Origin: Candidatus Saccharimonadota bacterium
GTDB lineage: Bacteria > Patescibacteriota > Patescibacteriia > 2-12-FULL-60-25
DNA length: 32,000 nt
Reading direction: 5' to 3'
NCBI GenBank assembly: GCA_023898425.1
Contig: CP060222.1
Location: forward strand, 990,001-1,022,000
In this document: positions 1,753 to 24,331 of the stretch, one piece after another
Numbering within the stretch: position 1 is the stretch's first letter
How the letters are laid out: every line of letters begins with the position of its first letter
The notes under the pieces: model-generated
Database searches by the model: none
Told to the model about the DNA's origin: nothing
Seen by the model: only the letters and a program-made list of their open reading frames with translations
Program-made: the position numbers and the translations under genes

Positions 1753-1754
1753 GC

Positions 1755-1778
1755 AAAAAGCGTGTAAACGCTTTTTTT
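1755..1778 (+). terminator. Rho-independent terminator after galU
   Basis: Perfect 9-bp stem aaaaagcgt/acgcttttt with loop gtaa, followed by a T run. Confidence 0.75.
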
Positions 1779-1794
1779 GTTATACTGTTGTCAT

Positions 1795-3198
1795 ATGTCT
1801 TTTTCTTTAAAGAAAGCGGTCGCTCTTTTGGGTGTTCTTGCGATTACTGGTCAAGGTTGTACAAAGGCTTTACCACAAGCAACCGTTAATGCATCAAAAC
1901 CTGTAACCCTCAGAATCTGGGGAGTTGTTGATGACTATAATGTCTATCAGCCGGCGATAGAGTCATGGCGCAAATTGCATCCAAACGTCACGATTGAGTA
2001 TAAGCGTTTTCGTTTAGAAGAGTATGAAAATGAGCTCCTCAATAATTTTGCCGAAGACCGTGGACCAGACATCTTTTTAATCCACAATACTTGGACAGGG
2101 GAGTACTTATCAAAGATTACCCCAATGCCTAAGCAGGTTTCTACGGCCTATCGTGTTACTTCGGGTGGTGTGAGACCGCAACTGACATGGGAGTTACGTG
2201 CTGAGCCTACGGTTTCACTTATTGATATCAAAAATCAATTTGCTGATACGGTTGCTCGTGATCTTGTTCGTACCGTCAACGTTGGTACGACCGACAAACC
2301 GGTAAACGAAGAACGTGCTATGGGTGTACCAGTCGGTATTGATACACTTGCGCTTTACTACAATAAGGATTTGTTAAATGCGGCTAATATCCCAACGCCA
2401 CCTGAGGATTGGGGACAATTTACCGAACAAACGAAGGCGCTCACACAGATAGATACTGACGGTAATCTCACAAGAACAGCCGCTGGTATTGGTACATCCG
2501 CTAATGTTGAGCGAAGTGTGGATATTATCGCTGCACTTATGATGCAAAATGGTACTGTGATGGCGGATGATTTCGGTTACCCTACCTTTGACCGTATTCC
2601 TGCAGGCTTGACTGGGGTAGAGTTTCCGCCGGCATATCGCGCGCTTGAGTTCTATACAGATTTTGCAAATCCAAATAAAGACACCTATACCTGGGATGCT
2701 AAGCAACCAAATTCGTACGAAGCCTTTATCCAAGGGCAAACCGCCTTTTTCTTTGGCTATGCGTATCACGGTGATTTGATCCGTGCACGTGCGCCTCGTT
2801 TAAATCTCGGTATTACAAAACTACCTCAAATAGGCGGTAGACCACCTGTTAATATTGCGAACTATTGGTATTTTGCCGTTGCAAAAAAATCCGCTTCGCA
2901 GGATCTAAGTTGGTCATTACTTACGTATCTGTCTAAAGCAGATCAACAAAAAGCGATGCTCGCTATCGCAAAACGTCCTGCTTCACGAAAGGCTTTGCTT
3001 ACGGAGCAATTAAATGATGAGCGTATTGGTGTATTTGCCTCGCAAGTTCTAACAGCGACAAATTGGTATCGCGGTAAAAATATCACCGCTACAGAAGATG
3101 CCTTGCAGTCGATGATTGATGATATTGTTGCGGGTAGAGCTCCAATCAATCAAGCGGTGCGTCGTGCATCCGATGTGATTTCGCAGACGATTCAATAA
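1795..3198 (+). CDS. Lipoprotein, extracellular solute-binding protein (ABC-type, family 1-like)
   Basis: I prefer ATG at 1795 (MSFSLKKAVALLGVLAITGQGC, signal peptide plus lipobox), because the track start at 1777 is a TTG inside the galU terminator. Length and composition fit sugar-type SBPs. No permease or ATPase gene is adjacent. Confidence 0.65.
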   Translation: MSFSLKKAVALLGVLAITGQGCTKALPQATVNASKPVTLRIWGVVDDYNVYQPAIESWRKLHPNVTIEYKRFRLEEYENELLNNFAEDRGPDIFLIHNTWTGEYLSKITPMPKQVSTAYRVTSGGVRPQLTWELRAEPTVSLIDIKNQFADTVARDLVRTVNVGTTDKPVNEERAMGVPVGIDTLALYYNKDLLNAANIPTPPEDWGQFTEQTKALTQIDTDGNLTRTAAGIGTSANVERSVDIIAALMMQNGTVMADDFGYPTFDRIPAGLTGVEFPPAYRALEFYTDFANPNKDTYTWDAKQPNSYEAFIQGQTAFFFGYAYHGDLIRARAPRLNLGITKLPQIGGRPPVNIANYWYFAVAKKSASQDLSWSLLTYLSKADQQKAMLAIAKRPASRKALLTEQLNDERIGVFASQVLTATNWYRGKNITATEDALQSMIDDIVAGRAPINQAVRRASDVISQTIQ

Positions 3199-3218
3199 CA
3201 TGATACACTGGCGCACAT

Positions 3219-4142
3219 ATGCTACGTGCGCTTTCAAAGACGTTTGCCCTCTCGCTTGCCATATTAGGTTTAGGATTATTTACCAATCCTCAAATAAGTC
3301 TTGCACAGGCTGATCCTGCACCAGCTTCAACAGGTATTGGTGATGGTTGCGGAGAATCTACCAATAGTAGAATGAATAATGCAGAGCGAAGAACAATCGC
3401 TAATCTCGTCACACCCGAGGTTCCTGCATCCGCTTTTTCTTGTCGTGACGTTTCAAGTATCCCCGAAGCACAAAGACAAGCTTCTTGTGTATCAGGCCTA
3501 TGTCCGGGGGCAGCAACAGTCATGTGCTGTAAGCCATCTATAGGCGCTTCTCTTAATGTTACCGGGGGGAGTGATGCAAGCTCGACGGGTCCTAGTACCA
3601 CAGGTCAAACGGGAGGCGTAGGTAGACTCGCGCTCCCATCGTGTGTTTCTGATGGTAATTGTGGACTAGATGGTATGGTTACCATGGCCGTAAATTTTTC
3701 TAACTTTCTTTTTGGTATATCTGGCGCGATCTTTTTGTTGATATTTGTGTACGCGGGGTTTCGACTTATCTTCTTCGCGCCGGACGCTGGCACGGTCAAA
3801 GAAGCAAAGAGCATGCTCGTTAAAGCAACAACGGGTATGGTGATTATTGCGCTTGCAGGTGTTGCAACAACCTACCTCTACAATGGTTTACGTAGCGGTC
3901 AAGTAACCGGAGGTGGAGCGCCTACCACGAGTAGCGCATGTGCAACAAGAGAAGATGGGCAGCCATCGGGATTAACTTGTGTGCAAATCAGTAATGTCCC
4001 TAGAACAACAGATTATGCTGCTTATAGTGCCGCTCTTGAGAGTATGGGTTGTAGACCTTCGCCAAGAGGTCAAAGTCTTTGCACAGGAGCTACCAATTAT
4101 TGCTGCCCAGCAGGCACTCCAGACACCTATGTTGCACGCTAA
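3219..4142 (+). CDS. Secreted Cys-rich protein with central T4SS-pilin-like (VirB2/TrbC-type) two-helix module
   Basis: Signal peptide MLRALSKTFALSLAILGLGLFTNPQISLAQA. The central module is FSNFLFGISGAIFLLIFVYAGFRLIFFAPDAGTVKEAKSMLVKATTGMVIIALAGVATTYL. Cys-rich segments lie on both sides (SCVSGLCPGAATVMCCKPS and SLCTGATNYCCPAG). Confidence 0.6.
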   Translation: MLRALSKTFALSLAILGLGLFTNPQISLAQADPAPASTGIGDGCGESTNSRMNNAERRTIANLVTPEVPASAFSCRDVSSIPEAQRQASCVSGLCPGAATVMCCKPSIGASLNVTGGSDASSTGPSTTGQTGGVGRLALPSCVSDGNCGLDGMVTMAVNFSNFLFGISGAIFLLIFVYAGFRLIFFAPDAGTVKEAKSMLVKATTGMVIIALAGVATTYLYNGLRSGQVTGGGAPTTSSACATREDGQPSGLTCVQISNVPRTTDYAAYSAALESMGCRPSPRGQSLCTGATNYCCPAGTPDTYVAR

Positions 4143-4152
4143 TTTTTACGTT

Positions 4153-5154
4153 ATGAAAAACGCTCTCATTACGCTCGCTTTAACTTTAAGCGTATTTATT
4201 ATTATACCGTTACGTGCTCATGCTGAGAATGTTCCTTTTCTTTGTGCGGGGGATACTATCATCGTTAATGATTTTAATAGAGTTGTACCTGTCATTGGAA
4301 AAACTCAAGCATTAACTGCATGTATGGAATATATTGTTGCAAACAATAAAACAGGCAGCACCTTAGAAGCACGAGAAAAGGATATTCAAACAGGTGAGGC
4401 TCGTGCTGGGGGATTTTCTTATAATGCGAATTTTTGTTGGTGCTCCGTTCCAGGAAACTCAACGAGCTGTGTCCCTAAGGTGCTTTTTGCTGCCAATGAT
4501 AGCGCGGCTTGTGATTCTAGATGTTCTGAGGGTGGCGCTGTGGCAGTCCGTCGGCATTTTGAGCCACAGTATAAAGATTATCGAGGCACAACAAATAGTA
4601 ATAAGTGCGGTAACTATTGCTGGTGCAGCCAGCCAGCAGCTGCAGGAGAAACTGGTACGCGCTGTACACTGCATCGAGATACTCCCAAAAGAATTGGCGC
4701 TCAAGAAGTAAGAGTGCCGCTTACAGAGAGAGATGAATGTAGTGCATTATGTAATTCGATTGCCGGCGGGTCTGCAAAACAGTACCAAATGACCTACAGG
4801 AATTATTCAGGATCCTCTGACTGTTCTGTGGCAGAAGGCTCTGTTCCTGATGGTTCAGATTCAGTAACCCCACGTACAACTACCCCAGCTCCAACCGTTC
4901 GTTTGTTTAACCCGCTTTCAGGCGCTACAACCATCGTTGATATTGTTAATCGTGTGATAAAAATGATGCTAGGCGTGGTAGGGGGCGGCGCATTACTGAT
5001 GTTTGTCTACGGCGGTTTTAGCTGGATGATGGCGGGTGGTGATACGGGTAAATTAAGTACGGCAAAGACCATTTTATTAAACGCTACGTTAGGAATACTA
5101 TTGTTGATTTTCTCTTACGCTATTGTCTCAACCTTCTTTAGTCTATTAACTTAA
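4153..5154 (+). CDS. Secreted Cys-rich protein (two CWCS repeats) with C-terminal T4SS-pilin-like module
   Basis: I prefer ATG at 4153 (MKNALITLALTLSVFIIIPLRAHAEN signal peptide), because the track ORF start at 3979 overlaps the previous gene. C-terminal module: VIKMMLGVVGGGALLMFVYGGFSWMMAGGDTGKLSTAKTILLNATLGILLLIFSYAIVSTF. Confidence 0.65.
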   Translation: MKNALITLALTLSVFIIIPLRAHAENVPFLCAGDTIIVNDFNRVVPVIGKTQALTACMEYIVANNKTGSTLEAREKDIQTGEARAGGFSYNANFCWCSVPGNSTSCVPKVLFAANDSAACDSRCSEGGAVAVRRHFEPQYKDYRGTTNSNKCGNYCWCSQPAAAGETGTRCTLHRDTPKRIGAQEVRVPLTERDECSALCNSIAGGSAKQYQMTYRNYSGSSDCSVAEGSVPDGSDSVTPRTTTPAPTVRLFNPLSGATTIVDIVNRVIKMMLGVVGGGALLMFVYGGFSWMMAGGDTGKLSTAKTILLNATLGILLLIFSYAIVSTFFSLLT

Positions 5155-5167
5155 GCTATAAATTGTT

Positions 5168-5881
5168 ATGTTATTTTTTCAAAAAATAAAAACGTTCTTG
5201 TTGGTAGCAATTACCATGATTGGATTTGGTTCTTTTACTGCCGTGTATGCGTCAGACAATCCATTTACAGAATTTTTTAGCCGAGAAGGATATGATTCTT
5301 GCGCAAATATTGATGATAACCAAAACAATGACTGTGGTGCTGATGATTTTGAAGCGGTACGTGGCGCATTGGTAAGCTCTGGTCTTTGTCCAACAGATCA
5401 AGATTGTACACAAGGGCAATACAGCCTCTTTCAAGTTGAGTTTTCTAACTCTCGTGCCGGTACTGAAGAAGCGCCCTCACCGGGGCCAGATCCTTCACCA
5501 AGCGGAGGGGATGTTCCTACCTTTAGAAGCCCTACAGAATTTGGCTACCAAAGCCCTGTTGGTAACGATACAACGATAAATAGTTTTATAAGTCGCATCA
5601 TTAAGTTTGCTCTCGGAATTGTTGGCGCTGTTTTTTTGGCGATGCTCATCTACTCCGGTATTTTGTGGATGACGGCCGGTTCACAGTTTTCAGGTTCAGG
5701 AGATAAGCCAGGATCTAGTACATCTCAAATCGCTAAAGCAAAAGCCTCTATTAAAAACGCGGTGATTGGTATGGCTATTGTGGCACTCTCTTATGCAATC
5801 GTCACGACCGTATTTAATGTCGGAAATAGCGTTCTCAGGAGTCCTCCAGCAGCAGGCTCGTCGGGCTCGGTTACCCCATAA
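5168..5881 (+). CDS. Secreted protein with Cys-containing N-domain and T4SS-pilin-like module
   Basis: Has a signal peptide/TM segment and a SGLCPTDQDC motif. Module: IIKFALGIVGAVFLAMLIYSGILWMTAG...AKAKASIKNAVIGMAIVALSYAIVTTVF, with a longer inter-helix loop than its paralogues. Confidence 0.6.
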   Translation: MLFFQKIKTFLLVAITMIGFGSFTAVYASDNPFTEFFSREGYDSCANIDDNQNNDCGADDFEAVRGALVSSGLCPTDQDCTQGQYSLFQVEFSNSRAGTEEAPSPGPDPSPSGGDVPTFRSPTEFGYQSPVGNDTTINSFISRIIKFALGIVGAVFLAMLIYSGILWMTAGSQFSGSGDKPGSSTSQIAKAKASIKNAVIGMAIVALSYAIVTTVFNVGNSVLRSPPAAGSSGSVTP

Positions 5882-5945
5882 GGCACTTATTGAGCTTGGT
5901 ATAACAAAAGAGTTGCACGATGTTCTACTGATATTTCGGTGACTA

Positions 5946-5954
5946 TGGTATACT
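5946..5954 (+). promoter_or_regulatory. Extended -10 element (TGgTATACT) upstream of the short-pilin genes
   Basis: tggtatact lies about 65 nt upstream of ATG 6019. A strong RBS aaaggaggtg sits at 6001-6010. This is the only long (137 nt) gap inside the pilin array. Confidence 0.35.
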
Positions 5955-6018
5955 TTTTGTGTCGTCCAAACATTCAGTGGGACGATCTATCTAACATGAG
6001 AAAGGAGGTGAATTACGC

Positions 6019-6417
6019 ATGACCCCTCGTATAAAAAAACTCGCTGCTTTTGCTGCATCGACTGCTCTTGCAGCCGTTCTAGTATTACCAGCTACTACTT
6101 TTGCACAAGGTACTTTAAACGCTAATGATCTTGGCGTCGGAGCTATTAGCAACGATATCAAACTTGGCTCAGGTGACGTCCGTCAAACGGCTGCACGTAT
6201 TATTAACGTTGCTCTTAGTTTTCTCGGTCTTATCTCAGTTGTTATAGTGCTCATTGGTGGCTTTAAGTACATGGTATCAGGAGGCAACGACACGAAAACC
6301 GACGAAGCGAAGAAACTTATCACTTCTGGTATTATCGGTCTTGCTATCATCCTTTCAGCATGGGCGATCACAAGTTTTGTGATTAGCCAGTTACTTACCG
6401 CAACTTCGGATATCTAG
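6019..6417 (+). CDS. T4SS-pilin-like protein (VirB2/TrbC-type), short form
   Basis: 132 aa. Signal peptide ...LPATTFAQG, then IINVALSFLGLISVVIVLIGGFKYMVSGGNDTKTDEAKKLITSGIIGLAIILSAWAITSFV. It has the strongest RBS of the array. Confidence 0.7.
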   Translation: MTPRIKKLAAFAASTALAAVLVLPATTFAQGTLNANDLGVGAISNDIKLGSGDVRQTAARIINVALSFLGLISVVIVLIGGFKYMVSGGNDTKTDEAKKLITSGIIGLAIILSAWAITSFVISQLLTATSDI

Positions 6418-6460
6418 TCCCATTGTATATATAATCCGGCGTACCGCCGGCAATCCTTTC

Positions 6461-6994
6461 ATGAAACGAACTATCAAAACAGTGTTCGCCTTCGTGACGG
6501 CAATCATGCTTGCCATGCCGGCGGTCACGTTTGCTCAACTTACTCCGGCCAACACCGGATTAACAACAGCAGCAGCCGGAACCGGCCTCAGTACCGGTTG
6601 TTCAGGTACAGAGTGTGTCGTTACGATTATTGCGAATGTCATAAATATCGTTCTTGGTTTTCTTGGCGTCGTCCTGTTGCTCATCGTCATGTACGCTGGC
6701 TTCAAGTGGATGACCGCCGATAAAGAAGACGACGTGAAGAACGCGAAGTCGATGATAAAGAATGCTGTTGCTGGCCTAGTGGTCATCACGGTATCCTATG
6801 CATTTGCGGCTTTCGTTATAGAGACACTAGGAACTCTCGGTAATCCAGCTCAAGAAGTGCCAGCTCCTACTCAAGATGATTCTGCTGGTGGGCAACCACG
6901 AGGCTCGGGCAGTGATGCGTCTTCAAATAACGATAACCCTCCAGCTCAGCAAGAAGGGACAGATTCCTTCATTTGGAGACTGTTTGGTGGATAA
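6461..6994 (+). CDS. T4SS-pilin-like protein with disordered acidic/polar C-terminal tail
   Basis: Signal peptide ...AMPAVTFAQL. Module VINIVLGFLGVVLLLIVMYAGFKWMTADKEDDVKNAKSMIKNAVAGLVVITVSYAFAAFV, followed by a low-complexity tail. Confidence 0.65.
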   Translation: MKRTIKTVFAFVTAIMLAMPAVTFAQLTPANTGLTTAAAGTGLSTGCSGTECVVTIIANVINIVLGFLGVVLLLIVMYAGFKWMTADKEDDVKNAKSMIKNAVAGLVVITVSYAFAAFVIETLGTLGNPAQEVPAPTQDDSAGGQPRGSGSDASSNNDNPPAQQEGTDSFIWRLFGG

Positions 6995-7016
6995 TTAACT
7001 CTCACTCTTAACATTT

Positions 7017-7409
7017 ATGAAATATTTCTATTCAAAAGCAGTACTGCTAACTACCTCAGTTGGTACAGCGCTCACTGGTACAGTTGTCCATGCTGCAGGT
7101 AACCCATTTGGTAGTAGTGGTTCCGCTCAACAAGAATTAGGCAAGGTGCAAACAGCATCAGGATTAGGTACCGGTGATTTATCAACAATGATTGGTACTA
7201 TTATCAATGTGGTCCTTGGGTTCATGGGTATCGTTCTTCTCTTCTACATAATCCTTGCAGGTTGGGAATGGATGAGTGCTGGTGGTGAAAAAGATGGCGT
7301 AGAAACAGCGAAGGCTCGTATCAAGAATGCTGTTATTGGTCTTGTTATTATCGTTTCAGCATACGCGATTTCTACCTTTGTTATTGATCAGCTTGTAAAG
7401 TTAACATAA
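7017..7409 (+). CDS. T4SS-pilin-like protein, short form
   Basis: 130 aa with a signal peptide. Module IINVVLGFMGIVLLFYIILAGWEWMSAGGEKDGVETAKARIKNAVIGLVIIVSAYAISTFV. Confidence 0.7.
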   Translation: MKYFYSKAVLLTTSVGTALTGTVVHAAGNPFGSSGSAQQELGKVQTASGLGTGDLSTMIGTIINVVLGFMGIVLLFYIILAGWEWMSAGGEKDGVETAKARIKNAVIGLVIIVSAYAISTFVIDQLVKLT

Positions 7410-7420
7410 TTACCTCAAAG

Positions 7421-7448
7421 AAAAATCACTCAATACTGAGTGATTTTT
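7421..7448. terminator. Bidirectional rho-independent terminator closing the pilin array
   Basis: 12-bp perfect stem aaaaatcactca/tgagtgattttt with loop atac. An A run lies 5' and a T run 3'. Confidence 0.8.
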
Positions 7449-7518
7449 GATAAAAAGCCTGGGACTCAATCTCGAAAGATTTCGAGAGAGTCACCGGACT
7501 TTAGTCAGTTACAGACAG

Positions 7519-8491
7519 TTAAATATCTGTATTCATGCCACCATCAGTAGAGCTGATGGTGAGCTGACTTCGCTGATTGATCAAGTCAGCTACCTGATAC
7601 CTGCGCACTCGACTGCGCGATACAGGCATCAGAGCTCCAAGAGCCCCGCTGGCCGTAGGTAGGTATAGGTACACCCCAATTTCGACCGTCGGGCTATTCC
7701 CCTCCAGCTCCATTACGAAGCTGGTGTCTGTGTGCGCTGGCAAGCGCGCTGCGGACACAATGGCCGCCGCCTTGCATTTGCTGCACGGCCATCTGGGGAC
7801 GCCCATTTCTGAGTAGGAGAGCCTCTCCTTCCGTTGACCGTTATTACCATCCAGTACATGGACGGTCTAACTTCAACAGTAATAGCTACAGGCGATGTCG
7901 CCTGTAGCGTGCCGCCGGAAGCTAAGCTAGGGTCGATGGTGCGACGTGAGCCTGGCGAATACCAGGTCGCATCAAAAATCCCCACCGTACTCGCGAGACG
8001 AGTTGTCTCAAAAGTACTTGGGCAGTACCCAAGCTGAGCATAACTCCATCCCTGAAACATGCCTTGGGGCATGTACGGGGAACAAGGGAGGCGTCGCAGC
8101 CACTGGAGGTGTGCTCGCAGCGGGTGCTGGAGCAGGTGCCGCCGGTGTGGTCTGTGGCGCAGCAGCAGCAGCAGCTGGTGCTGCTGCTTGCTCGGTGGAG
8201 CAGTAGCTCGGCGTCGTGGCGCCCTGCACGTTGCACGTACAGTCCACGAGGCAGGCGCGAGCGCCCGCGACCAAGAAGCGGTTCGCTTCCTGATACTGCT
8301 CAAGGTTTCGAGGAGTGACGCGCGTACGCCCACTCACCGTCGTGCACTGAGGTGCATGACAGGCGGAGAGGAGCCGCTCGATGAAGACGTGTATACGTCT
8401 CCCGAGCGCGAACGAGCGGATCCTCCTGCCCAAAGGCGGTGGAGGAAACGAGAAGGAGCATCGTCATGGTGACGAGAAAGAACTTGTACAT
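7519..8491 (-). pseudogene. Disrupted gene for a secreted Cys-rich protein with Ala/Pro linker (frame changes at least 3 times), or partly non-coding hairpin-rich DNA
   Basis: ATG at 8491 gives signal peptide MYKFFLVTMTMLLLVSSTAFGQ. Protein-like sequence then continues in other frames: ...CHAPQCTTVSGRTRVTPRNLEQYQEANRFLVAGARACLVDCTCNVQGATTPSYCSTEQAAAPAAAAAAPQTTPAAPAPAPAASTPP, then GIFDATWYSPGSRRTIDPSLASGGTLQATSPVAITVEVRPSMYWMVITVNG, then ...FVMELEGNSPTVEIGVYLYLPTASG. No single frame is intact. Confidence 0.35.
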
Positions 8492-8521
8492 TTTTTAACT
8501 TTTTTTTGTATTTTTGGAGTT

Positions 8522-8582
8522 CCCTCTCTAAACTAGAGAGGGACGACCACGTAACAACAAGCAATGCTTGCGTTACGTGGTC
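8522..8582 (-). other. Two adjacent strong hairpins between the two minus-strand secreted-protein genes
   Basis: First: ccctctcta/tagagaggg (9 bp, 8522-8542). Second: gaccacgtaac...gttacgtggtc (11 bp, 8545-8582), extended by inner caagca/tgcttg. No U run follows on the minus strand, so this is not a classical terminator. Confidence 0.45.
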
Positions 8583-8590
8583 AGGGTGAG

Positions 8591-9172
8591 TCACTGCGCA
8601 GCCCTTGCGGCTGCACGTTGTTCGCCACGAGTCACAAGCTCGGCTTCGAGCTCCTCTTCGCTCATGCCAGCTCGCGTTTGCGAAGCCGGAGGCAAGTTTG
8701 GAACCTGTGGTCCGTACAGCACCGCTTGGCGCTGCATGCTGTAGTTGGCGGTCATGCCATTGAAGTATCCGCTGGTGTACAACGGCATGAATTGCCCAAA
8801 GGGCATCATGCCGAATTGTGACCCATTCAGCGCACCGGCGCGGAGTGTGCACGCGTCCATGATTTGGACCTGCGAGTAGCGGCAACCGGTAACACCGGCT
8901 TCGCAAATCGCAAGACCTGCGTCATTGTCAGCTGTGAAGCTGACAACGCATTGGTTGTAGCCTCGGGTTTCAACCGTGGCATATTGCCGTTGGTTAGAGA
9001 CCGTGTGGCAATTCCCAGCCACACAGACCTGTCGCGTGCTGCTGCGTCCGTACGGGCTTCGTACATTGCTGCTAGCGGCGTTGTAGCAGCCCTGCATCGT
9101 GAAGATGAAGAGCGCCGCCAAGGCGACGAAGCCAAAGAACCTAATGAAACCGTTCAACGTTAGCTTTTCCAT
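8591..9172 (-). CDS. Cys-rich lipoprotein, unknown function
   Basis: 193 aa. MEKLTLNGFIRFFGFVALAALFIFTMQGC is a signal peptide plus lipobox. RBS aaaggaga lies upstream. Eight Cys residues and a charged C-terminal tail. Intact frame in GC-rich DNA. Confidence 0.7.
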   Translation of the reverse strand: MEKLTLNGFIRFFGFVALAALFIFTMQGCYNAASSNVRSPYGRSSTRQVCVAGNCHTVSNQRQYATVETRGYNQCVVSFTADNDAGLAICEAGVTGCRYSQVQIMDACTLRAGALNGSQFGMMPFGQFMPLYTSGYFNGMTANYSMQRQAVLYGPQVPNLPPASQTRAGMSEEELEAELVTRGEQRAAARAAQ

Positions 9173-9284
9173 GAGTTCTCCTTTGCTAGGTTTTTTGCTT
9201 AAACTAGCGAAATTTGTCTTTTGTTGTCGAAGGTGTCGACAGGGTGATGAAAAGATACCGTATCTCTCTCACTCCTGACCCTCT

Positions 9285-9313
9285 AATATACCAAAAATAG
9301 TGACTTTTGTCAA
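9285..9313 (-). promoter_or_regulatory. Sigma70-type promoter TTGACA-N17-TATATT for the 9172 lipoprotein gene
   Basis: The minus strand reads ttgacaaaagtcactatttttggtatatt (-35 at 9313-9308, -10 at 9290-9285). Confidence 0.6.
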
Positions 9314-9347
9314 TGAATAACGCAACATTTATTCTGTCTCGTTTTAC

Positions 9348-9376
9348 TTGACAAAACAGTCATTTTATCGTATATT
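9348..9376 (+). promoter_or_regulatory. Sigma70-type promoter TTGACA-N17-TATATT for the LysM/SLT genes
   Basis: ttgacaaaacagtcattttatcgtatatt (-35 at 9348-9353, -10 at 9371-9376), about 95 nt upstream of ATG 9473. Confidence 0.6.
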
Positions 9377-9472
9377 TGCGTGTTCTCGGCAAGCTGCCGG
9401 GGATACCATCGTAACTTCACAACTTAACAAAAAATAGTGAAGTTTTCACGTCAATCAAGCCAAGGAGGCACA

Positions 9473-10390
9473 ATGGCTAAAGGCAAGGGTAAGAATAGTG
9501 GCTTGAGTGAATTCCGCAAGGACACGCTCGAGCTCATGGTCGAGTTTCTCGCCAGAAAATTTGGCGTGAATCTTTTGACCGTGATGCCTGCGTCACTCAA
9601 GGATCAGCTCCTTAGGCTCCTCGGTGGGCCTGATGGAGAGATCACTGAGCAGCAGATCTACTACTTCTCGATGATCCCCAAGTTTTTGTTCAGCGGTACG
9701 CTGAGCGAAGAGGCGGGACAAAGCTTTGTAAAAAGCTTTGGTGAGTCCTTGCGTGCGTATGGTCAAAATCCAAACGCGGATCGTGATGCTCGCCGCATGG
9801 ACATCCAACGCTTCTTGAACGAAGCGATCGTTGCTAGTGAGGCAAAACGGCCCACGAGCATCATCAGCAAAGCGAACCTCTTTGAGAGGATCGCAAACTT
9901 GCCATCGAGCGATAGCGCTTACATGGTACGTATGCTCATCTCACTTCAACAAGGGGGAGCACACAAGCTCAGTATGAACAGTTCTACGACGCCGCCAAAA
10001 AGTTGGTTGTCGAAGAGCAGCATCTGTTTCTTGTCATTCAGTATTTGAAGAATGGCAAGCAGGACATGGCCTACAAGGAGCTTGTCCGTGTCTTGAAAGA
10101 TGCGGCTCTGGTGAATCCTCCTGAGAAGCCAAAGAAGCCGAACTGTATGGAACGGCTTAAAGGCTCGTGCAGAAGAAGAGCTGGATAAGCTCAGCTTGGA
10201 CCATGGTCGAGATATTATCGACTATGTCGTTCAGCCAGGAGATACTATCGATTCAATTGCGAGTCAGTATCAGATTGAAGAGCATACGGTTCGTAACATG
10301 AATCACCTGAAACAGGGTGATCAGCCAGCGGTTGGTGCAACACTTCGTGTCGTACAGGGACCATTTTACGGATCCAATTCGACAAGCTGA
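9473..10390 (+). pseudogene. LysM-domain protein, split over three ORFs by two compensating frame changes
   Basis: RBS aaggagg plus ATG 9473 (MAKGKGKNSG...). The frame changes near the G5 run at 9953-9957 into ...STQAQYEQFYDAAKKLVVEEQHLFLVIQYLKNGKQDMAYKELVRVLKDAALVNPPEKPKKP. It returns to the original frame near 10140 as ...LKARAEEELDKLSLDHGRDIIDYVVQPGDTIDSIASQYQIEEHTVRNMNHLKQGDQPAVGATLRVV, which is a LysM motif. Confidence 0.55.
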
Positions 10391-10453
10391 AAAACTCACG
10401 GCCAGTCTCCTTAGGCGACTCGGCTAAACCACACTTCAACATTGGAGAACATC

Positions 10454-12700
10454 ATGAACGAAAGACTGAAAGCGCGCTTTGAGGACATTAGCCTAGCGGC
10501 TCTATCCTTTCTCGGGATCTTCTTAGGACTCAAAGCCTACATGGCAGAGTTCAAGGTTCTGACGGGGCTTGCAAGTGCCACGGGGAGAATGAGTGTTCGC
10601 ACAGTTGTGCGTTTGCTCAACTACAACGGTGTCGCCATGTTGCGACCCTTGTACACCTTCATCATCCTCACACAGCTTTTTGCTGATGGTTGTGGGTGTA
10701 TTGCCGCTCGTGTGCTTGTCATACGAGTTGATGTCAGCGCTGATCATTGTGCCCAGCACCTTGATGCTGATTTGGCTCGTGTGGCGCAGACTACGGCTCC
10801 GAAACGTTGTGCCTTTAGCTCAAGCGAGCTCAATGCCCTTCTTGATTCGGATGCGATGATTGTGAACTTCGGTCATGGTGATCGATTTTCTGTCGTTGAT
10901 TTGGTGACTTTCCCATTGGCTCTTATCGGTCAGGGATTGCTCCTTATCGTGATCGCCTTCTTAACGGGAGCGATTTACGGTACATCGGTGGCATTTATCT
11001 GGTCGGTCATGGCCGTCGGCATCATCACGTACGTTTTTGGCGTGTCGTTGTTGAGGCTCACCGTTGGCACTATCGGCGTATTTGTCGTAGCGCCCAGCAA
11101 GTGGGTTGAAACAGCGTCTGGTAGAATCGCGCGTGCGATTCTTGATCCGGTCCTGCCGGGGATCACGGCAGCCAATGTCGGGGATCTCTTGCCGGGTAGC
11201 TTGGTGGATAAGCTCAAAATGCTTTTCACCAGGTTGGACGACGGGATGAAACTCATGGACCAGTTTGCTGCTCCGATCATTATGATCTTGGCAGCAACTC
11301 TGAATCTGCCGGTCGCAGGATTGTGTATTGCTGGCCTGTTGATCTTTGGGATCTACCAAAATACCAAGCTACGTAAAGGCGGAACGTTTGCTGCAGAAGC
11401 AAAGAAGAGCATCAACGAAGGAGAGCGTTTTGTCTACGCCCTCTCGGTATTCTTCTATGTGTTGCACATCATCGGGCTCTTTGTCTTTGGTTTGCATACG
11501 CGACCAAGCGTAGGCATCCTTGGTGGGTCGCTCATGAACGTGTTGCAATTCGCGACAAGCGGATTGCTCATCAGCGCCGCTTCGGTTTTTGTCCTGATAA
11601 AGGTCAAGAATTGGGGCTTTGCTGCGCACAAGGGGCTTGAGCTTACGCTTCCGCAAATCGCGGGGGTCATTGCTCTCGTTCTATTGTTCGCGGTATCTGG
11701 CATTGGTGTCGCTAACGCGACCGGTATGGAGATCCGTCCTGTGGCTTCATATTTTGACAGGTATGAACATCCTCCAGGAGAGGCGCTTCATTGTCTCAAT
11801 GGGATCAAGGATCATGGAGAAAGCTCTACGGACCATGGTCCAGGCTGTGGGCCCGCTCGACAAGGGGGTGACGAAGCCTCTCGTCGGATTGCGGCAGATT
11901 TGCCGGTCGAGTTTGCTCCGGTTCCTGGCGGCACGATCTTTCAAAGAGCGTGGTGCTGGGCATTTAAGAGCTCAGATTCTTGTGTTGGAGCAGCGGTGGA
12001 GAGTCCTCGTCAACAGCGGGGATTTCATCCAGCGCCTTCATCCGCACCTGAGCAAGCACCCGCTCCAATACAACGGACTCCTTCGGGGCCAATGTACGCG
12101 TCGCTTGATGCGAATGTTGCTTCGGGTGGGCTTCCGCCGTCACCGTACAACGAGATCATCGTGAGAGCGAGTGAGCGCCATGGCGTTGACAAGCTCTTGA
12201 TCTGGACGGTAGCAAAGCATGAGTCCGGCTTTGATCCCAACATTGTTGGGGGGAGTGGAGAAGTCGGTCTCATGCAGCTTATGCCTGGTACGGCACGCGG
12301 GCTAGGTGTTCATGATCGTCATGATCCTGAACAAAACATCATGGGTGGTACGCTCTATCTCCGGAATAATCTGGATGCGTGCCATCAAGACGTTCGTTGT
12401 GCTTTGGCTCGCTATAATGGCGGACGTAATGGAATGCATTCACCACATGCTCAACGATACGCTCGTCGTGTCATGAGAAAGTATCAAGCACTCCGTACAG
12501 GTACGGCTCGTGATTATGAGCCGGCACCATCTCGACGTCATCGCGCTCCGCGAATCGAGTCTTCGGATTCGGTTCTCGTCGAGCGTGAGACCACGCGTGA
12601 TTCGTCGCGTGTGACGATGGCTCGTCTTGACGACAGCGTCTGTGATGAGTTCTCCCAGTTCTTTCTCGAGCGTATGCGATCGCAAGGTCGCTGTCGCTAA
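10454..12700 (+). CDS. Polytopic membrane protein with C-terminal soluble-lytic-transglycosylase (SLT, GH23) domain
   Basis: I prefer ATG at 10454 (RBS ggagaa); the track start 10442 is a TTG. About 430 aa of multiple hydrophobic helices are followed by a Pro/Ser linker. The SLT signature is LLIWTVAKHESGFDPNIVGGSGEVGLMQLMPGTARGLG...LARYNGG. Confidence 0.8.
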   Translation: MNERLKARFEDISLAALSFLGIFLGLKAYMAEFKVLTGLASATGRMSVRTVVRLLNYNGVAMLRPLYTFIILTQLFADGCGCIAARVLVIRVDVSADHCAQHLDADLARVAQTTAPKRCAFSSSELNALLDSDAMIVNFGHGDRFSVVDLVTFPLALIGQGLLLIVIAFLTGAIYGTSVAFIWSVMAVGIITYVFGVSLLRLTVGTIGVFVVAPSKWVETASGRIARAILDPVLPGITAANVGDLLPGSLVDKLKMLFTRLDDGMKLMDQFAAPIIMILAATLNLPVAGLCIAGLLIFGIYQNTKLRKGGTFAAEAKKSINEGERFVYALSVFFYVLHIIGLFVFGLHTRPSVGILGGSLMNVLQFATSGLLISAASVFVLIKVKNWGFAAHKGLELTLPQIAGVIALVLLFAVSGIGVANATGMEIRPVASYFDRYEHPPGEALHCLNGIKDHGESSTDHGPGCGPARQGGDEASRRIAADLPVEFAPVPGGTIFQRAWCWAFKSSDSCVGAAVESPRQQRGFHPAPSSAPEQAPAPIQRTPSGPMYASLDANVASGGLPPSPYNEIIVRASERHGVDKLLIWTVAKHESGFDPNIVGGSGEVGLMQLMPGTARGLGVHDRHDPEQNIMGGTLYLRNNLDACHQDVRCALARYNGGRNGMHSPHAQRYARRVMRKYQALRTGTARDYEPAPSRRHRAPRIESSDSVLVERETTRDSSRVTMARLDDSVCDEFSQFFLERMRSQGRCR

Positions 12701-12725
12701 CATCCCCTAAGGGATAACTGAAATG

Positions 12726-12753
12726 AGCCCCCGATAGCTATCGGGGGCTTTTT
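12726..12753 (+). terminator. Rho-independent terminator at the right end of the GC-rich island
   Basis: agcccccgata/tatcgggggct 11-bp stem followed by ttttt. Confidence 0.8.
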
Positions 12754-12772
12754 CATTTGGTGTTTTTAGGTC

Positions 12773-14340
12773 ATGATGATCACGATTCGTATGCAAAAGA
12801 TTTTTTCTCTCTTTCAAAAAACGTGGATGCGCTGGCTTTTGTTTTTATCGGTTCTTTTGGCTTGGTTCATTGGTTTTCAGCCATGGGGCAGCTTTTCTGA
12901 TCCCGATGCGTTTTACCATTCAACCATGGCGGCGATCATGTTGAAGCAAGGATTGATTCAAGATTTTTATTGGTTGGATCTGACTTCTTTTGCACACCCA
13001 TTTTTTAATCAGCACTTTCTCTTTCATATAGCATTGGTTCCTTTTGTCGCAGTTTTTGGTGCATTGTTAGGTGGTCAAATTGCAGCCGTCTGTTTTGCGA
13101 TACTTTTTTGTCTCGTCTTTGCTTGGTGCTTAAAAAAACTACAATCACCAGCACCGCTCTTTTGGACCTTGGTCATGGCGACCATGCCTGCGATGACGGC
13201 GCGTCTCTCATATGGTAAGGCCTCACCTTTTGCTGTTGGGTTATTTATTTTGGGTGTTACGGCATTGATTTCTCGTTCGAGATGGCTTGGATTTTTTAGC
13301 ATGATGTTGTTTGTTTTATCGCATGCGGGTTGGCCATTGCTAATCTTGGCGCAAGGCGCACTTCTTGTGGGTCACGCTTTGTATTTATGTGCTGTTGATT
13401 CGGTGCCTTTTTGGCGAGTGTTTTGCGACAAAGAATGGCTTAGTGAGGTCGCGCTCTTTTTTACAACGCTATTAGGGGCGATTGTTGGTATTGCGTTACA
13501 TCCGTACCGGGCTGAGCTCTTTGTCTTTTTAAAGGTGCAGCTTTTTCAGATTGGTATCGCGACGCCTTATGATCGCGTGATTATGGGTAATGAATGGTAT
13601 GGTATTTCTCCGCTTACGGCTATTGCTTGGTATTATGTATTACTAGTGTGTTTCGGGTTTTTGCTTTTGGTCTTCTTGTTGCTAGAAGGGCTGCTAACCG
13701 TCAGGCGATGCGCTATGTGATTATGCTAGCGGTCCCTACGATATTTCTATTAGCACTTAATTTAAAGAGTGCACGTTTTGTAGAATACTCTGCACCTTTA
13801 CTTGTTTTATTGATGGCGCAACTCTTTCATCTTATCGATGTGAAAAAAACATGGCGTGAACTACAAAAGACCATGCGACCACGGTATGCCTATACTTTTG
13901 CTATCACGCTCGTAAGTATTTTCGGGTATCAATCCGTAGATCTTTTCTGGACATCTCACTCGCAAAACAAGTCTTTTCATTATTATGCTGGTGCAATGAG
14001 TGTTATTAAAAACGAGCTACAACCGGGTGATCGACTATTTCATTCGGATTGGTCACATATGCCAATACTGTGGGCAGAGAATCAAGACATTCGTTATGTC
14101 GCGGGTTTAGATCCAACATTTTTACTTACAAAAAATCCTGAACTTTCTGATCGGTATACTGAGCTTACCCTTGGTCGTGCGACGAGCACTGCTTATGAAG
14201 TCATCGCTATTGAGACGCAATCAAAAGCCGTCTTTGTTGATCGAGCACGCGGTACCGCTTTTGAATCCGCCCTTAAAGCCGACCAACGATTTGAGCTTTT
14301 GTATGAGGATGATCGTGCCGCCGTCTATCGTGTTCACTAA
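12773..14340 (+). pseudogene. Polytopic membrane protein, putative GT-C-type glycosyltransferase, read in two overlapping frames
   Basis: Track ORFs 12773..13720 and 13594..14340 overlap in different frames. The hydrophobic helix ...AWYYVLLVCFGFLLLVFLLL continues naturally as ARRAANRQAMRYVIMLAVPTIFLL, implying one frame change near 13680. The first-loop motif DPDAFYH resembles the acidic loop of GT-C enzymes; that family assignment is only an inference. Confidence 0.5.
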
Positions 14341-14438
14341 TGAAAAAAAGTTATCCACTGCTCACGTTTGACGTTCTTCCGTAATCCCCGTAAGAAATAG
14401 ACATGAACCGAGTACCTTCCGTTCTATACAGCTAACCG

Positions 14439-14496
14439 TTCTCGCGAATTGTCATCTGACTCTCGCGAGAAACTTCTCAACGGTTTGTCGCGAGAG
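14439..14496 (+). other. Three TCGCGA-core palindromes, nested in an aaccgtt/aacggtt stem
   Basis: ttctcgcgaa (14439-48), tctcgcgaga (14461-70, a perfect 10-bp palindrome) and gtcgcgagag (14487-96). The outer 7-bp pairing is 14434-40 with 14479-85. Confidence 0.4.
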
Positions 14497-14520
14497 CCAG
14501 AGGATAATATCCTCGAAAAA

Positions 14521-14556
14521 ATCTCCGGTCCCATGCTTGCCGGAGATTTTTTATTT
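14521..14556. terminator. Bidirectional terminator between convergent genes
   Basis: atctccgg/ccggagat 8-bp stem, with an A run 5' and a long T run 3'. Confidence 0.7.
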
Positions 14557-14571
14557 ACTTTTTTGTTAGCT

Positions 14572-14694
14572 TGTCGCCCGTCACCCCGAGCAACCGGAGC
14601 ACTAGCGCAGGGCGTCGAGGGGTCACGTAGCCCCTGAGCGACCTCTCCACTCCCTCGTCAGACTCGGTCGGTCGAGGTGACGATAGGAAAGACA
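14572..14694. other. GC-rich multi-stem structured element (possible small RNA or 3'UTR structure)
   Basis: The closing stem is cgtcacc (14579-85) with ggtgacg (14676-82). An inner hairpin gtcg-agggg/cccct-cgac lies at 14613-41. The element is markedly GC-rich against AT-rich flanks, and the 62-aa track ORF here is not convincing. Confidence 0.35.
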
Positions 14695-14710
14695 CAGGGG
14701 AGGTTAAAGT

Positions 14711-14917
14711 TCAGTCTTTCAGTAATTCTTCAAGTGTTGGTTCGCCCCAGAGGTTAAATTCTCGAAGGCTATTATCGATAAGATCTTCAGCTTCGTCGAT
14801 GTCCATCATTTCGTCGATGATGAGCTTATTAATCATTTCAGCGCGGCATTCTGCCTTCGGTCTTACGTCGCCGTCTTCTTTAAAGCACATGGCTTTAAGC
14901 TGTTCTTTGGTCATCAT
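14711..14917 (-). CDS. Small acidic hypothetical protein (68 aa)
   Basis: Intact ORF MMTKEQLKAMCFKEDGDVRPKAECRAEMINKLIIDEMMDIDEAEDLIDNSLREF.... I recognise no family. Confidence 0.4.
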   Translation of the reverse strand: MMTKEQLKAMCFKEDGDVRPKAECRAEMINKLIIDEMMDIDEAEDLIDNSLREFNLWGEPTLEELLKD

Positions 14918-14983
14918 ATATCGGTAGGGTAGTCGCGAAGTACCAAGATAGGCAAGTCGGCTGGTTGGTGATAGGGTTTTGGT

Positions 14984-16159
14984 ATGAAGAATGCTCTTCG
15001 GTATCTCTTATTGGCATTACCTATTATATTGCCGACGTATCTCCTTCGATTTAAGATCGGTCCTTTGCCGACAACCGTTTTAGAAATTGTTGTTTTAGTG
15101 ATTATTGGGTTGTTTACCGTTACATACAAAGGCCAAGGATATAAAGATGCGTGGACAGCACTAAAAACATTTCGACTTCCGCTTATAGCTTTTACGTTTT
15201 TTTCATTGGCTGCGGTTTTTTGGTCGCCGGTACTGGTGCAGGGGTTAGGATTATGGCGGGCTTATGTTTTAGAGCCGATGCTCTTGCTAATGGTTTTTGT
15301 TGTAAGCATTGGTCGTGATGTACGCCGTGAAGAGATAGAACGATCTTTATACGTGAGCGTTTTGCTCCTTGCGATGTGGGGAGTTGTTGAATATCTTTTT
15401 GGGGTAGGTATCCCAAGTCCTTGGAATGTAGCGATAAGTGAAGGTCGTCGAGCGACGGGGCCATTTCCTTATCCAAATGCCTTAGCCTTAGCAGTGGTAC
15501 CAATTGGTGCGTATGGGTTATCACGTTTTATCTCATCACGTGATCGTTTAGGGTTTATCACTTTTGTGATGGCGCTTATCGCTTCGTTTGTTGCACGAAG
15601 TGATGGGGGATTCATTGCGCTCGCGGCTGTGCTTTGGTTGGCGCTCGTTTCAATCAAGCGCCTTCGTTGGCCTGTAATTGTTGTGACTATTATAGGATTG
15701 GCTGTTGGTTTTGGTGTCTCAGAGATTCGTGAACCTGTTCTAAAAGAACTACGTTTAGAAAACTGGTCTGGGTATGTACGTAAAAAAATGTGGCAGGACA
15801 CAACAGTTCTGCTCAAGGATCACCCGATAAAAGGCGCAGGTATGGCGGGATATCCTACGGTGTTTAAGCCGTATCAAACCACAACGGGTATTGAAGTCTT
15901 TCAGTATCCACACAATATCATCCTAAATTTTTGGGTAGAGACAGGTCTCGCTGGGCTCTTGGCTTTTTTCTGGATTGTTTTTGCTTGGCTCAAAAAGAAA
16001 GAGGCAATGCTATTGCCTCTTGTCGCGCTACTCATTCATGGTCTGGTAGATGTGCCGTATTTTAAGAATGACTTAGCGATTGTCTTTTTTCTTTTGCTAG
16101 CACTTTGTGCAATTACGCAAAGTGCTTCTTCGCGTACGTCTCAAGGGCAAGTAAAATAG
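14984..16159 (+). CDS. O-antigen ligase / polymerase family (Wzy_C-like) membrane protein
   Basis: 391 aa and polytopic. FQYPHNIILNFWVETGLAGLLAFFWIVF matches the H-N-x-x-L...E-x-G signature of the Wzy_C family. Confidence 0.65.
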   Translation: MKNALRYLLLALPIILPTYLLRFKIGPLPTTVLEIVVLVIIGLFTVTYKGQGYKDAWTALKTFRLPLIAFTFFSLAAVFWSPVLVQGLGLWRAYVLEPMLLLMVFVVSIGRDVRREEIERSLYVSVLLLAMWGVVEYLFGVGIPSPWNVAISEGRRATGPFPYPNALALAVVPIGAYGLSRFISSRDRLGFITFVMALIASFVARSDGGFIALAAVLWLALVSIKRLRWPVIVVTIIGLAVGFGVSEIREPVLKELRLENWSGYVRKKMWQDTTVLLKDHPIKGAGMAGYPTVFKPYQTTTGIEVFQYPHNIILNFWVETGLAGLLAFFWIVFAWLKKKEAMLLPLVALLIHGLVDVPYFKNDLAIVFFLLLALCAITQSASSRTSQGQVK

Positions 16160-17824: not shown

Positions 17825-17916
17825 GGAGAGGTGGCAGAGTGGTCGAATGCAACGGACTTGAAATCCGTCGTACGGCTTTAACCGTACCGAGGGTTCGAAT
17901 CCCTCCTTCTCCGCCA
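17825..17916 (+). tRNA. tRNA-Ser (anticodon UGA), CCA encoded
   Basis: Acceptor ggagagg/cttctcc; anticodon stem-loop acgga-cttgaaa-tccgt; long variable arm cgtacggctttaaccgtaccg; T arm gaggg-ttcgaat-ccctc. It ends in gcca. Confidence 0.9.
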
Positions 17917-18049
17917 GCAAAAAAACACTCGATTAACGAGTGTTTTTTTGATTTAGCCACCTTTGGTTTTGACTAGTCACGAGTTATAAATAGTGAATTC
18001 GTGTATGATGAAAAAAGATACTTACTAAGGTATAGAGGAAAAACAAAAA
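17911..18049 (+). repeat. Direct repeat copy 1 (attL-like): last 6 nt of the tRNA, its terminator and the tspO upstream region
   Basis: ccgccagcaaaaaaacactcgattaacgagtgttttttt...ggaaaaacaaaaa. It differs from copy 2 only in A7 versus A6 and gcca versus tccta. Confidence 0.85.
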
Positions 18050-23989: not shown

Positions 23990-24198
23990 TGAAGCGGCGG
24001 CAGCAAAACCAAAAATTTCTTACCAATCCATTTTCGGCGGGGGTGTGGGGAGCCGCAAATAAAAAATGATAGGAAATTTTTGGGTTTTGCCTGCCGCGCG
24101 AAAGCTTGTCAGAGCGGCCGAGGCGAAAAAGGTCATTCGTCAAAATCCTGCGGATTTTGTCCGAAATACATTCGAACTTCGTCCAATACACACCGCCA
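23990..24198 (-). repeat. Inverted repeat, right copy (about 209 bp), whose outer end overlaps the start of attR
   Basis: The reverse complement matches 19608-19813. The outermost ccgcca (24193-98) is also the tRNA 3'-end copy that begins the direct repeat. Confidence 0.8.
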
Positions 24199-24331
24199 GC
24201 AAAAAACACTCGATTAACGAGTGTTTTTTTGATTTATCCTACCTTTGGTTTTGACTAGTCACGAGTTATAAATAGTGAATTCGTGTATGATGAAAAAAGA
24301 TACTTACTAAGGTATAGAGGAAAAACAAAAA
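24193..24331 (+). repeat. Direct repeat copy 2 (attR-like)
   Basis: Same 139-bp sequence as 17911-18049. It ends 2 nt before the tspO ATG at 24334. Confidence 0.85.

Follow-up and report, generated by a model that had tools for sequence, protein, structure and literature searches.

Does an abrupt step in base composition along a bacterial chromosome betray genes brought in from elsewhere, or can it belong to a locus and be inherited with it? The question is raised by a 5.3-kb block rich in G+C (GC), at positions 7450-12760 of a 32-kb stretch (hereafter, the window) of the 1.03-Mb patescibacterial contig CP060222.1. The block holds four genes for putative envelope proteins and stands between an array of six pilin genes and a gene for a 520-residue membrane protein, which we call mem520. 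A reading of the window made from its sequence alone (the sequence-only reading) had proposed that the block may be a horizontally acquired island. Comparison with related contigs and genomes leads us to a different answer. Orthologous GC-rich blocks occupy the same site in every block-bearing relative, with a similar excess of GC over their surroundings, and the block is likely to be a native, clade-specific, four-gene cell-envelope module, which was inserted long ago and has been inherited at this locus since.

A sharply bounded block beside a pilin array

The GC content of the block is 0.528, against 0.431 for the rest of the window, and the highest value found for 5.3-kb windows outside it is 0.452. 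At third codon positions (GC3) the block stands at 0.59 and the remainder of the window at 0.37; gene by gene, the four block genes (0.55-0.66) and the 20 other genes (0.30-0.46) form disjoint sets (Mann-Whitney test, p = 0.0011). The sliding GC profile runs at 0.53-0.60 over 7500-9250 and at 0.48-0.56 over 9500-12750, with flanks at 0.40-0.45 and a dip to 0.45 at 9000-9750, which is the intergenic control region. The tetranucleotide distance is also elevated across 7001-13000. The block, its borders and the adjoining array are made up as follows.

3219-7409, plus strand: six tandem VirB2-type pilin genes (PF18895, T4SS_pilin; Pfam scores of 26.7-37.6 bits, cut-off 26.6)
7421-7448, both strands: left border after the last pilin gene, terminator-like and bidirectional (A-run, 12-bp hairpin, T-run)
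7519-8491, minus strand: gene for a 322-residue secreted protein, intact in contigs L001 (6159-7127) and L008
8591-9172, minus strand: gene for a 193-residue Cys-rich lipoprotein with a signal peptide and a QGC lipobox-like cysteine; its open reading frame (ORF) is intact in the window
9100-11900, no strand: zone of deep allelic divergence in the identity profile, covering the control region, the LysM gene and the membrane half of the SLT gene
9285-9313, minus strand: leftward sigma-70-type promoter, TTGACA-17-TATATT with a TG upstream (11/12 consensus matches)
9348-9376, plus strand: rightward sigma-70-type promoter, TTGACA-17-TATATT (11/12 consensus matches)
9382-9443, plus strand: conserved 5' leader of the LysM-SLT operon with two hairpins (9382-9404 and 9414-9443), from the intergenic alignment and RNAalifold
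9473-10427, plus strand: gene for a 316-residue LysM protein, intact in L001 (4225-5175)
10454-12700, plus strand: gene for a 748-residue polytopic protein with an SLT lytic-transglycosylase domain (Pfam SLT)
12725-12750, both strands: right border, terminator-like on both strands by folding (G+C-rich 11-bp hairpin and T-run)

The left-hand hairpin folds at -13.6 kcal/mol on the plus strand and -16.2 kcal/mol on the minus strand (z about -4.9), the right-hand one at -24 kcal/mol (z = -4.9), and relatives keep the latter, as seen from palindromic BLAST matches. No integrase or recombinase was found in the block by scans of Pfam, PHROG and NCBIfam profiles, and a search for direct repeats flanking it returned only short chance repeats around 7450-12760. 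There is no tRNA gene near it, the sole one in the window lying at 17825-17916, and Rfam offered no structured RNA that could stand behind the GC-rich stretch, the only match in the window at gathering score being that tRNA-Ser. The descriptive part of the sequence-only reading thus holds well: the abrupt jump in composition is confirmed by all three measures and the strong terminators at both borders by folding, the block does lie beside a pilin array, and profile scans and repeat search agree with its statement that neither an integrase nor flanking direct repeats are to be seen.

The same block at the same site in relatives

In five independent short-read contigs (L001-L005), the locus is 99.3-99.7% identical to the window. 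Ten further contexts (L006-L015, 'Candidatus Magasanikbacteria' GCA_020429645.1 and others) have the gene order of the window, and six more distant ones (L016, L017, L019, L022, L023 and L024) are fully syntenic with it. The shared order runs from an ALO oxidase, GalU, a solute-binding protein (SBP) and the six pilins through the two minus-strand and the two plus-strand genes of the block to mem520, the 68-residue protein o68, Wzy, HxlR, a nitroreductase and a NUDIX protein. The composition is shared as well: in relatives the GC3 of the block is 0.60-0.82 against 0.43-0.63 in the flanks, the offset amounts to +0.18 to +0.23 in L017, L019 and L023 with a background GC3 of 0.37-0.58 across lineages, and GC3 values of relatives correlate gene by gene with those of the window (r = 0.85-0.97).

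A scan of the GTDB species genomes with a mem520 alignment returned 26 loci and extends the comparison further. In two 'Uhrbacteria' loci, L025 (4500-10000) and L026 (3973-9971), where mem520 is 39% identical, a block of 5.5-6.0 kb sits at the same spot, with a GC of 0.637 and 0.555, respectively, against 0.475-0.525 in the flanks. L025, which we examined in detail, has the same divergent layout, with TTGACA-17-TATATT at its promoters, and its polytopic protein, of 708 residues, keeps the C-terminal Cys motif; this protein also matches a holin family weakly and below threshold (PF07332; 21.6 bits, cut-off 28.4). Relatives that are closer in their flanking genes are also closer in the block, as in L024 and L019, where mem520 is 90% and the block genes are 72-83% identical.

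In eleven deeper Patescibacteria (mem520 identity 26-37%), only 40-784 bp separate the last pilin gene from mem520. Every contig of the species and clade carries the block at this site, and it is absent only where mem520 identity is 37% or less. Since it is missing from these eleven, one old gain is indicated, and the simplest history would place it in the ancestor shared by the block-bearing lineages. The best hits of the four proteins gave no useful taxonomic information here, as word-indexed searches returned the same species or clade only.

The proposal of a horizontally acquired island is not borne out by these comparisons. Orthologous GC-rich blocks at the same locus in all relatives had been named beforehand as the observation that speaks for native genes, and such blocks are what we found in every block-bearing lineage (L016-L026), with the GC3 offset given above. 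The same reading had suggested that a GC-rich gene at 1-675 may be acquired too; it turns out to be the start of a conserved, GC-rich orthologous oxidase gene.

That minus-strand segment encodes the N-terminus of an 801-residue secreted oxidase of FAD_binding_4/ALO type, 64% identical to its L019 orthologue. It is a second conserved GC-rich gene, being rich in GC in every lineage (GC about 0.58; GC3 0.74 in relatives). In every lineage the fifth pilin gene (6461-6994) likewise exceeds its neighbours in the array in GC3 (0.46 here, 0.58-0.60 in relatives), which is another sign of inherited per-gene composition.

Single-base indels probably conceal intact genes

Three of the four block genes look broken or garbled in the window because of single-base indels. 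With L001-L005 as reference there are about 16 indel events per 7.4 kb, nearly all of a single base and mostly in homopolymer runs (7416-13657); the five contigs agree with one another at these sites against the window, and L004 and L005 differ from it by indels only. The 322-residue, 193-residue, 316-residue and 748-residue genes are all intact in L001-L005, as is a 521-residue membrane-protein gene outside the block (12773-14340) that is broken in the window at 13657. In the raw window the gene of the 322-residue protein and the LysM gene are each split over three or four frames. The indels are probably errors of long-read sequencing or assembly. A cluster of pseudogenes was considered and rejected, as four independent frameshifts in one gene with almost no substitutions, mostly homopolymeric and absent from five other assemblies, point to read errors. 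Such errors probably occur throughout the window, so that other short ORFs in it may be artefacts too. The practical warning is that frameshift errors of this kind in the assembly would make real genes seem pseudogenes.

Proteins of the block and their control region

The 322-residue protein, whose gene carries indels in the window at 7745, 7826, 8081 and 8365 and has a GC3 of 0.59, consists of a signal peptide, a Cys-rich N-terminal part, an Ala/Pro linker and a predicted beta-sandwich as C-terminal domain; its homologues (P0010-P0015) come exclusively from this clade in word-indexed searches. The 193-residue lipoprotein (GC3 0.66) is identical on the five contigs L001-L005, and an alignment of seven orthologues shows four invariant cysteines, C29, C75, C90 and C108, of which one is the QGC cysteine. 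Neither protein has a credible match (E <= 0.05) in Pfam (searched to E = 5), PHROGs or NCBIfam.

On the plus strand, the LysM gene is interrupted in the window by indels at about 9949-9953, 10159 and 10363. A region of some 245 residues of no matched fold precedes the C-terminal LysM domain, which scores 39.4 bits (cut-off 20.9) at window positions 10196-10390 and 36.9 bits in the intact protein (residues 250-292). The sole homologue beyond its own allele, in word-indexed searches, is that of a second allele, B (P0003, 71% identity).

The 748-residue protein begins with a polytopic membrane domain (residues 1-425), for which an approximate segmentation by hydrophobicity, not a reliable topology, gives about 9-11 helices. 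There follow a conserved Cys-rich juxtamembrane motif (CLNG..D.DE..TD.GP.C), a Pro-rich linker, the SLT domain (about residues 560-680) and a likewise conserved C-terminal Cys motif (…GRCR/P); all eight cysteines lie within the C-terminal 323 residues, and there are no hydrophobic helices past about residue 425. In the window, compensating indels at 10677 and 10813 garble about 45 residues. The SLT domain (PF01464, cut-off 21.3) scores 80.7 bits over residues 573-674 of the window ORF and 80.5 bits in the intact protein. Seven family members share E590 and S591, G605-L606-M607-Q608 and Y654-N655-G657 without exception, and the catalytic E-S, GLMQLMP and YNGG motifs are conserved. The nearest solved relative of the domain is the phage tape-measure protein 9b45 gp41 (E = 9e-18), with whose Glu the catalytic Glu aligns, and its best PHROG match is 'lytic tail protein'. 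The best NCBIfam matches of the protein (BB0259, MltF, MltC and IagB) are all far below their cut-offs, and a tblastn search of 50,697 phage records matched the SLT domain only.

An exhaustive HMMER search of 1.84 billion representative proteins found the membrane domain in six clusters only (P0002 and P0005-P0009), all of 736-780 residues and all from the same type of locus. P0002, annotated in a 'Candidatus Magasanikbacteria' genome, is 90% identical to the 748-residue protein, and P0005-P0009 were found at 31-36% identity. No credible match to the membrane domain exists in Pfam (to E = 5, VirB6/TrbL included), PHROGs or NCBIfam.

Transcription of the two arms would start from the divergent promoters. 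The TTGACA box of the leftward one is invariant in seven lineages, the rightward one is invariant or nearly so in the same number, and L025 has a similar arrangement. The control region as a whole (9173-9472) has a mean column identity of 70% across lineages in the intergenic alignment, which is above that of the adjacent coding DNA. In the leader, RNAalifold predicts 15 pairs, which are mostly preserved via one-sided changes, with two compensatory pairs; Rfam gave no family for it and nothing credible at E <= 10 over 9100-9520. An inverted repeat, TGTCGAAGGTGTCGACA, lies on the leftward side of the control region. Both the gene content described by the sequence-only reading (two secreted Cys-rich proteins, a LysM protein and a membrane-anchored lytic transglycosylase) and its AT-rich control region with one consensus promoter for each arm are thus recovered, the former from domains and sequence features.

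Fast evolution and exchange of alleles

Between the window and L017, L019, L022 and L023, amino acid identity is 89-91% for GalU, 83-86% for SBP, 91-93% for o68 and 60-63% for mem520; for the four block proteins it is 22-61%. At the level of these protein comparisons, the module is shown to evolve several-fold faster than its flanks.

A second kind of divergence appears between strains that are otherwise nearly the same. Over 9100-11900 their DNA identity is 61-87%, with flanks that are 97-100% identical, and the profile drops from 100% to 61% and recovers within 3 kb. The two alleles encode LysM proteins that are 71% identical and SLT proteins that are 89% identical, the latter graded from N- to C-terminus. 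Synonymous divergence (dS) is about 1.5 in the LysM gene and falls to 0 by codon 480 of the SLT gene, with a ratio of nonsynonymous to synonymous divergence (dN/dS) of 0.1-0.2 between the alleles and a full range of 0.02-0.33. There is more to this diversity: L006 (3026-4822) has a third allele of the 322-residue gene (59% identical) and of the sixth pilin gene, pil6, and P0005 combines a membrane domain of 36% identity with a near-identical C-terminus. L006 also carries, at 3167-3544, an extra fragment of a lipoprotein-like paralogue.

High dS together with low dN/dS argues for old, functional alleles moved by homologous recombination. Judged by these rates the alleles are under purifying selection, and the pattern is one neither of recent positive selection nor of decay; the identity profile shows that deeply diverged alleles are kept and move between near-identical strains by homologous recombination. 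A diversity-generating retroelement was rejected as the source, given a divergence that extends over about 2.8 kb with saturated synonymous sites and low dN/dS, and given that no reverse transcriptase was found among the scanned ORFs.

Origin of the block and of its GC excess

The history that we favour, and hold to be likely as a whole, has the module inserted between the last VirB2-type pilin gene and the mem520 gene in an ancestor of this Magasanikbacteria lineage and the two nearest 'Uhrbacteria' genomes. The polytopic domain would hold the SLT domain and the eight-Cys C-terminal region on the outer face of the membrane, where the SLT domain, whose catalytic motifs are intact in the clade, would cut peptidoglycan locally. 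The LysM protein and the two exported proteins would act at the same place, binding or organising the wall. Most probably such an assembly would serve to make an opening for a surface structure, or for a site of cell contact, that is connected with the neighbouring pilins, and the wall in question may be the cell's own or that of the host bacterium carrying such epibionts. A part played together with that surface structure, or where the cell meets a host cell, is suggested by the constant adjacency to the VirB2-type array.

Several observations sit badly with this account and have to be set against it. AlphaFold2 (AF2) models are of low confidence: the 748-residue protein, predicted from a seven-sequence alignment, has a predicted local distance difference test score (pLDDT) of 56.7, with confidence for the SLT domain only, and the 322-residue protein one of 58.8, with nothing in the PDB at E <= 1e-3 by Foldseek and only generic beta-sandwiches among the matches. 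Beyond LysM and SLT, three block proteins have no recognisable domain. The LysM protein shows no N-terminal hydrophobic segment on inspection of its sequence, and hence no evident signal peptide that would take it to the wall. In L025 the polytopic protein has a large insertion and no SLT domain, so wall cutting is not universal to the module; the pilins do not need the block, as the eleven deeper relatives retain the array in its absence. Finally, pilins 1-3 are also fast-evolving but not GC-rich, so speed alone cannot explain the composition.

How, then, did the GC excess arise? Three other histories of the block have to be weighed. In one, the block is a GC-rich contaminant joined chimerically into an AT-rich genome. 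The high rate of indel errors in the window assembly lends this some colour, but L001, a short-read Logan assembly, spans both borders at 99.3% identity, and the same junctions recur in over 15 additional contigs that differ in sample and source (Logan, ENA, JGI and NCBI). The check for a chimera at the borders, which the sequence-only reading had called for, is thereby settled: independent contigs cross both of them, and we reject a chimeric assembly, giving an artefact practically no chance. A recent horizontal acquisition, its composition still that of a donor, as first proposed for this locus, would account for the abrupt jump in GC and GC3 at gene borders, the raised tetranucleotide distance and four proteins without homologues outside a small clade. 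It fails on the presence of the block at this locus, with an unchanged GC offset, in every relative down to a mem520 identity of 39%, on the agreement between flanking and block divergence, and on the lack of an integrase, tRNA or flanking repeat at the block; moreover, the one real recent island of the window, described below, behaves quite differently. We therefore regard a recent arrival as very improbable.

Less remote, though still improbable, is an ancient transfer in which the ancestor of the clade received the block from a GC-rich donor such as a phage or another bacterium, the excess of GC being what amelioration has left. The absence of the block from eleven deeper relatives with the same flanking genes is as expected from such a transfer, and the kinship of the SLT domain with phage 9b45 gp41 and 'lytic tail protein' might hint at the donor; yet phage proteins match the SLT domain only. 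Identity between block proteins has fallen to 20-35%, and two alleles of a single species already differ by a dS of about 1.5, so that third positions have turned over many times and should have reached the composition of the host; instead, the offset stays near-constant at +0.18 to +0.23 over backgrounds of 0.37-0.58. With saturated third positions and an offset that is constant from lineage to lineage, the GC excess is unlikely to be the signature of a donor, and we infer that it is a heritable property of the locus. For a native module inherited in place, the best available explanation of this property is GC-biased gene conversion, or selection, acting at a recombination hot spot. A positive link between the GC content of genes and intragenic recombination has been described across bacteria (Lassalle et al. 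2015, PMC4450053), and we prefer gene conversion, or selection with the same effect, as the putative cause because the block is a visible hot spot of recombination and recombining bacterial genes tend to be richer in GC (PMC4450053).

A possible role beside the pilin array

The pilin array lies upstream of the block in all relatives examined, and more of the neighbourhood is conserved across many Patescibacteria: GalU, the solute-binding protein, the six pilins, the 520-residue polytopic protein, the 68-residue protein and a Wzy_C ligase-like protein (871-7409 and 12773-16159). The mem520 protein has an invariant DPDAFYH motif and no Pfam match. The locus from GalU through SBP, pilins and mem520 to Wzy may be a pilin-plus-glycosylation locus. 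VirB2 arrays of 2-11 genes are common in Patescibacteria, and a VirB2-like array is essential in Southlakia epibionticum (PMC12102498). Peptidoglycan hydrolases beside virB4 are essential for epibiotic growth of one Saccharibacterium, and patescibacterial VirB1 homologues, some of them with LysM, lie mostly away from virB4 (PMC12102498).

It is against this background that the block might be read as dedicated parts of a pilin-associated type IV secretion or pilus machine, with the SLT protein, as an equivalent of VirB1, opening the wall so that a pilus can be assembled, and with the lipoprotein and the secreted protein as envelope parts. Such a function is compatible with the native origin that we favour, and we rate it as possible, if somewhat doubtful. 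In the clade the block always adjoins the six-gene array, the catalytic motifs of the SLT domain are intact, and both VirB1 homologues with LysM domains and VirB2 arrays are described in Patescibacteria (PMC12102498). On the other hand, Pfam scans of the ORFs of the 32-kb window found VirB2-type pilins only, and no VirB4, VirB6/TrbL, VirB3 or VirD4/type IV coupling protein; Pfam searches as permissive as E <= 5 detect nothing like VirB6/TrbL in the polytopic domain; and both the array kept without the block in eleven deeper relatives and the SLT domain lost in L025 count against dedicated machine parts as well. A link of the block to a secretion apparatus is plausible; the sequence-only reading had gone further and seen in the pilins, the peptidoglycan-binding protein and the peptidoglycan-cutting enzyme the envelope-spanning part of a conjugation/T4SS-like or cell-contact apparatus, which they may or may not be.

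One might speculate further that the block is a cassette for host interaction or self-recognition, in which ancient, balanced, recombining alleles of a membrane-anchored wall-cutting device and its LysM and exported partners set the specificity for a partner or host, and in which the GC3 step is an unusually clean local footprint of GC-biased gene conversion at a recombination hot spot; we think this unlikely in its full form. A prophage lysis cassette was also considered and was rejected in view of the clade-wide synteny, the block's own conserved promoters and the lack of phage genes nearby.

A genuine island in the same window and what the contrast means

The window does contain an island of the classical kind. 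The segment 17917-24792, which the sister contig L007 lacks, begins directly after tRNA-Ser(TGA) (17825-17916), and two copies of a direct repeat some 140 nt long (17911-18049 and 24193-24331, spacing 6282) frame it. On its minus strand lie integrase fragments at 18338-18562, 18688-18933 and 18961-19263, which are successive parts of one family (phrog_95), and its cargo includes a fragment of a C5 DNA methyltransferase (20345-20992), RadC (22955-23287) and an HHH protein. By these sequence features it is a genuine integrative island, and its GC is 0.37-0.43. At its right edge a TspO/MBR family fragment of 99 residues (24283-24582, profile positions 16-90 of 145) overlaps the second copy of the repeat.

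Composition thus does not prove transfer, since what looks like an 'island' by composition can belong to a locus and be inherited vertically with it. Island callers based on composition would mislabel the block, and the real integrase/tRNA island of the window is compositionally unremarkable. Should recombination be the cause of the GC excess, the locus would be a natural test case for bacterial GC-biased gene conversion. The block also defines a new, very narrowly distributed patescibacterial family, in which a polytopic domain is fused to a lytic transglycosylase, together with three partner proteins; it adjoins a VirB2-type array, and such a structure is reported to be essential to the epibiotic growth of one cultivated relative. 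As its alleles differ so deeply between strains that are otherwise identical, the block is a candidate for that part of the cell surface on which selection by conflict or for specificity is strongest.

Comparison with known systems

With classical genomic islands the block shares a sharp compositional contrast with its flanks and lineage-specific genes of unassigned function. It differs from them in having no integrase, att repeats or tRNA, in not being patchy among relatives and in a composition that is inherited with the locus. The hypothesis of GC-biased gene conversion (PMC4450053) fits in that raised GC3 coincides with footprints of recombination and with mosaic alleles in near-identical backgrounds; the published effect, however, is a genome-wide statistical trend, whereas the block is a sharply bounded step of +0.2 GC3 that is maintained over deep divergence.

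Among specialised lytic transglycosylases, VirB1 of type IV secretion (T4SS), IagB of the type III secretion system (T3SS) and PrgK/TraG of Gram-positive conjugation have, like the block protein, a family-1 SLT domain with Glu-Ser, GLMQ and YNGG. The block gene, as in such systems, adjoins genes of a surface filament, here the VirB2-type pilins, and a LysM wall-binding domain accompanies its SLT domain, as in some patescibacterial VirB1 homologues (PMC12102498). The block differs from all of these in that the SLT domain is fused behind a polytopic domain of about 425 residues that has no relatives outside the six clusters, in that there is no clustering with VirB4, VirB6 or VirD4 within the window, and in that the LysM domain is on a separate protein without an evident signal peptide.

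The virion-associated lysins of phages (9b45 gp41; phrog_2013, 'lytic tail protein') resemble the block protein in an SLT domain about 40-50% identical over some 115-130 residues. Nothing outside that domain matches, no phage genes are nearby, and the block is chromosomal and syntenic clade-wide. The array itself is much like the VirB2-like arrays described in Patescibacteria, with six tandem, highly divergent PF18895 genes conserved across ABY1-type Patescibacteria; the published account describes no attached GC-rich SLT/LysM module (PMC12102498), which here is an add-on of one sub-clade.

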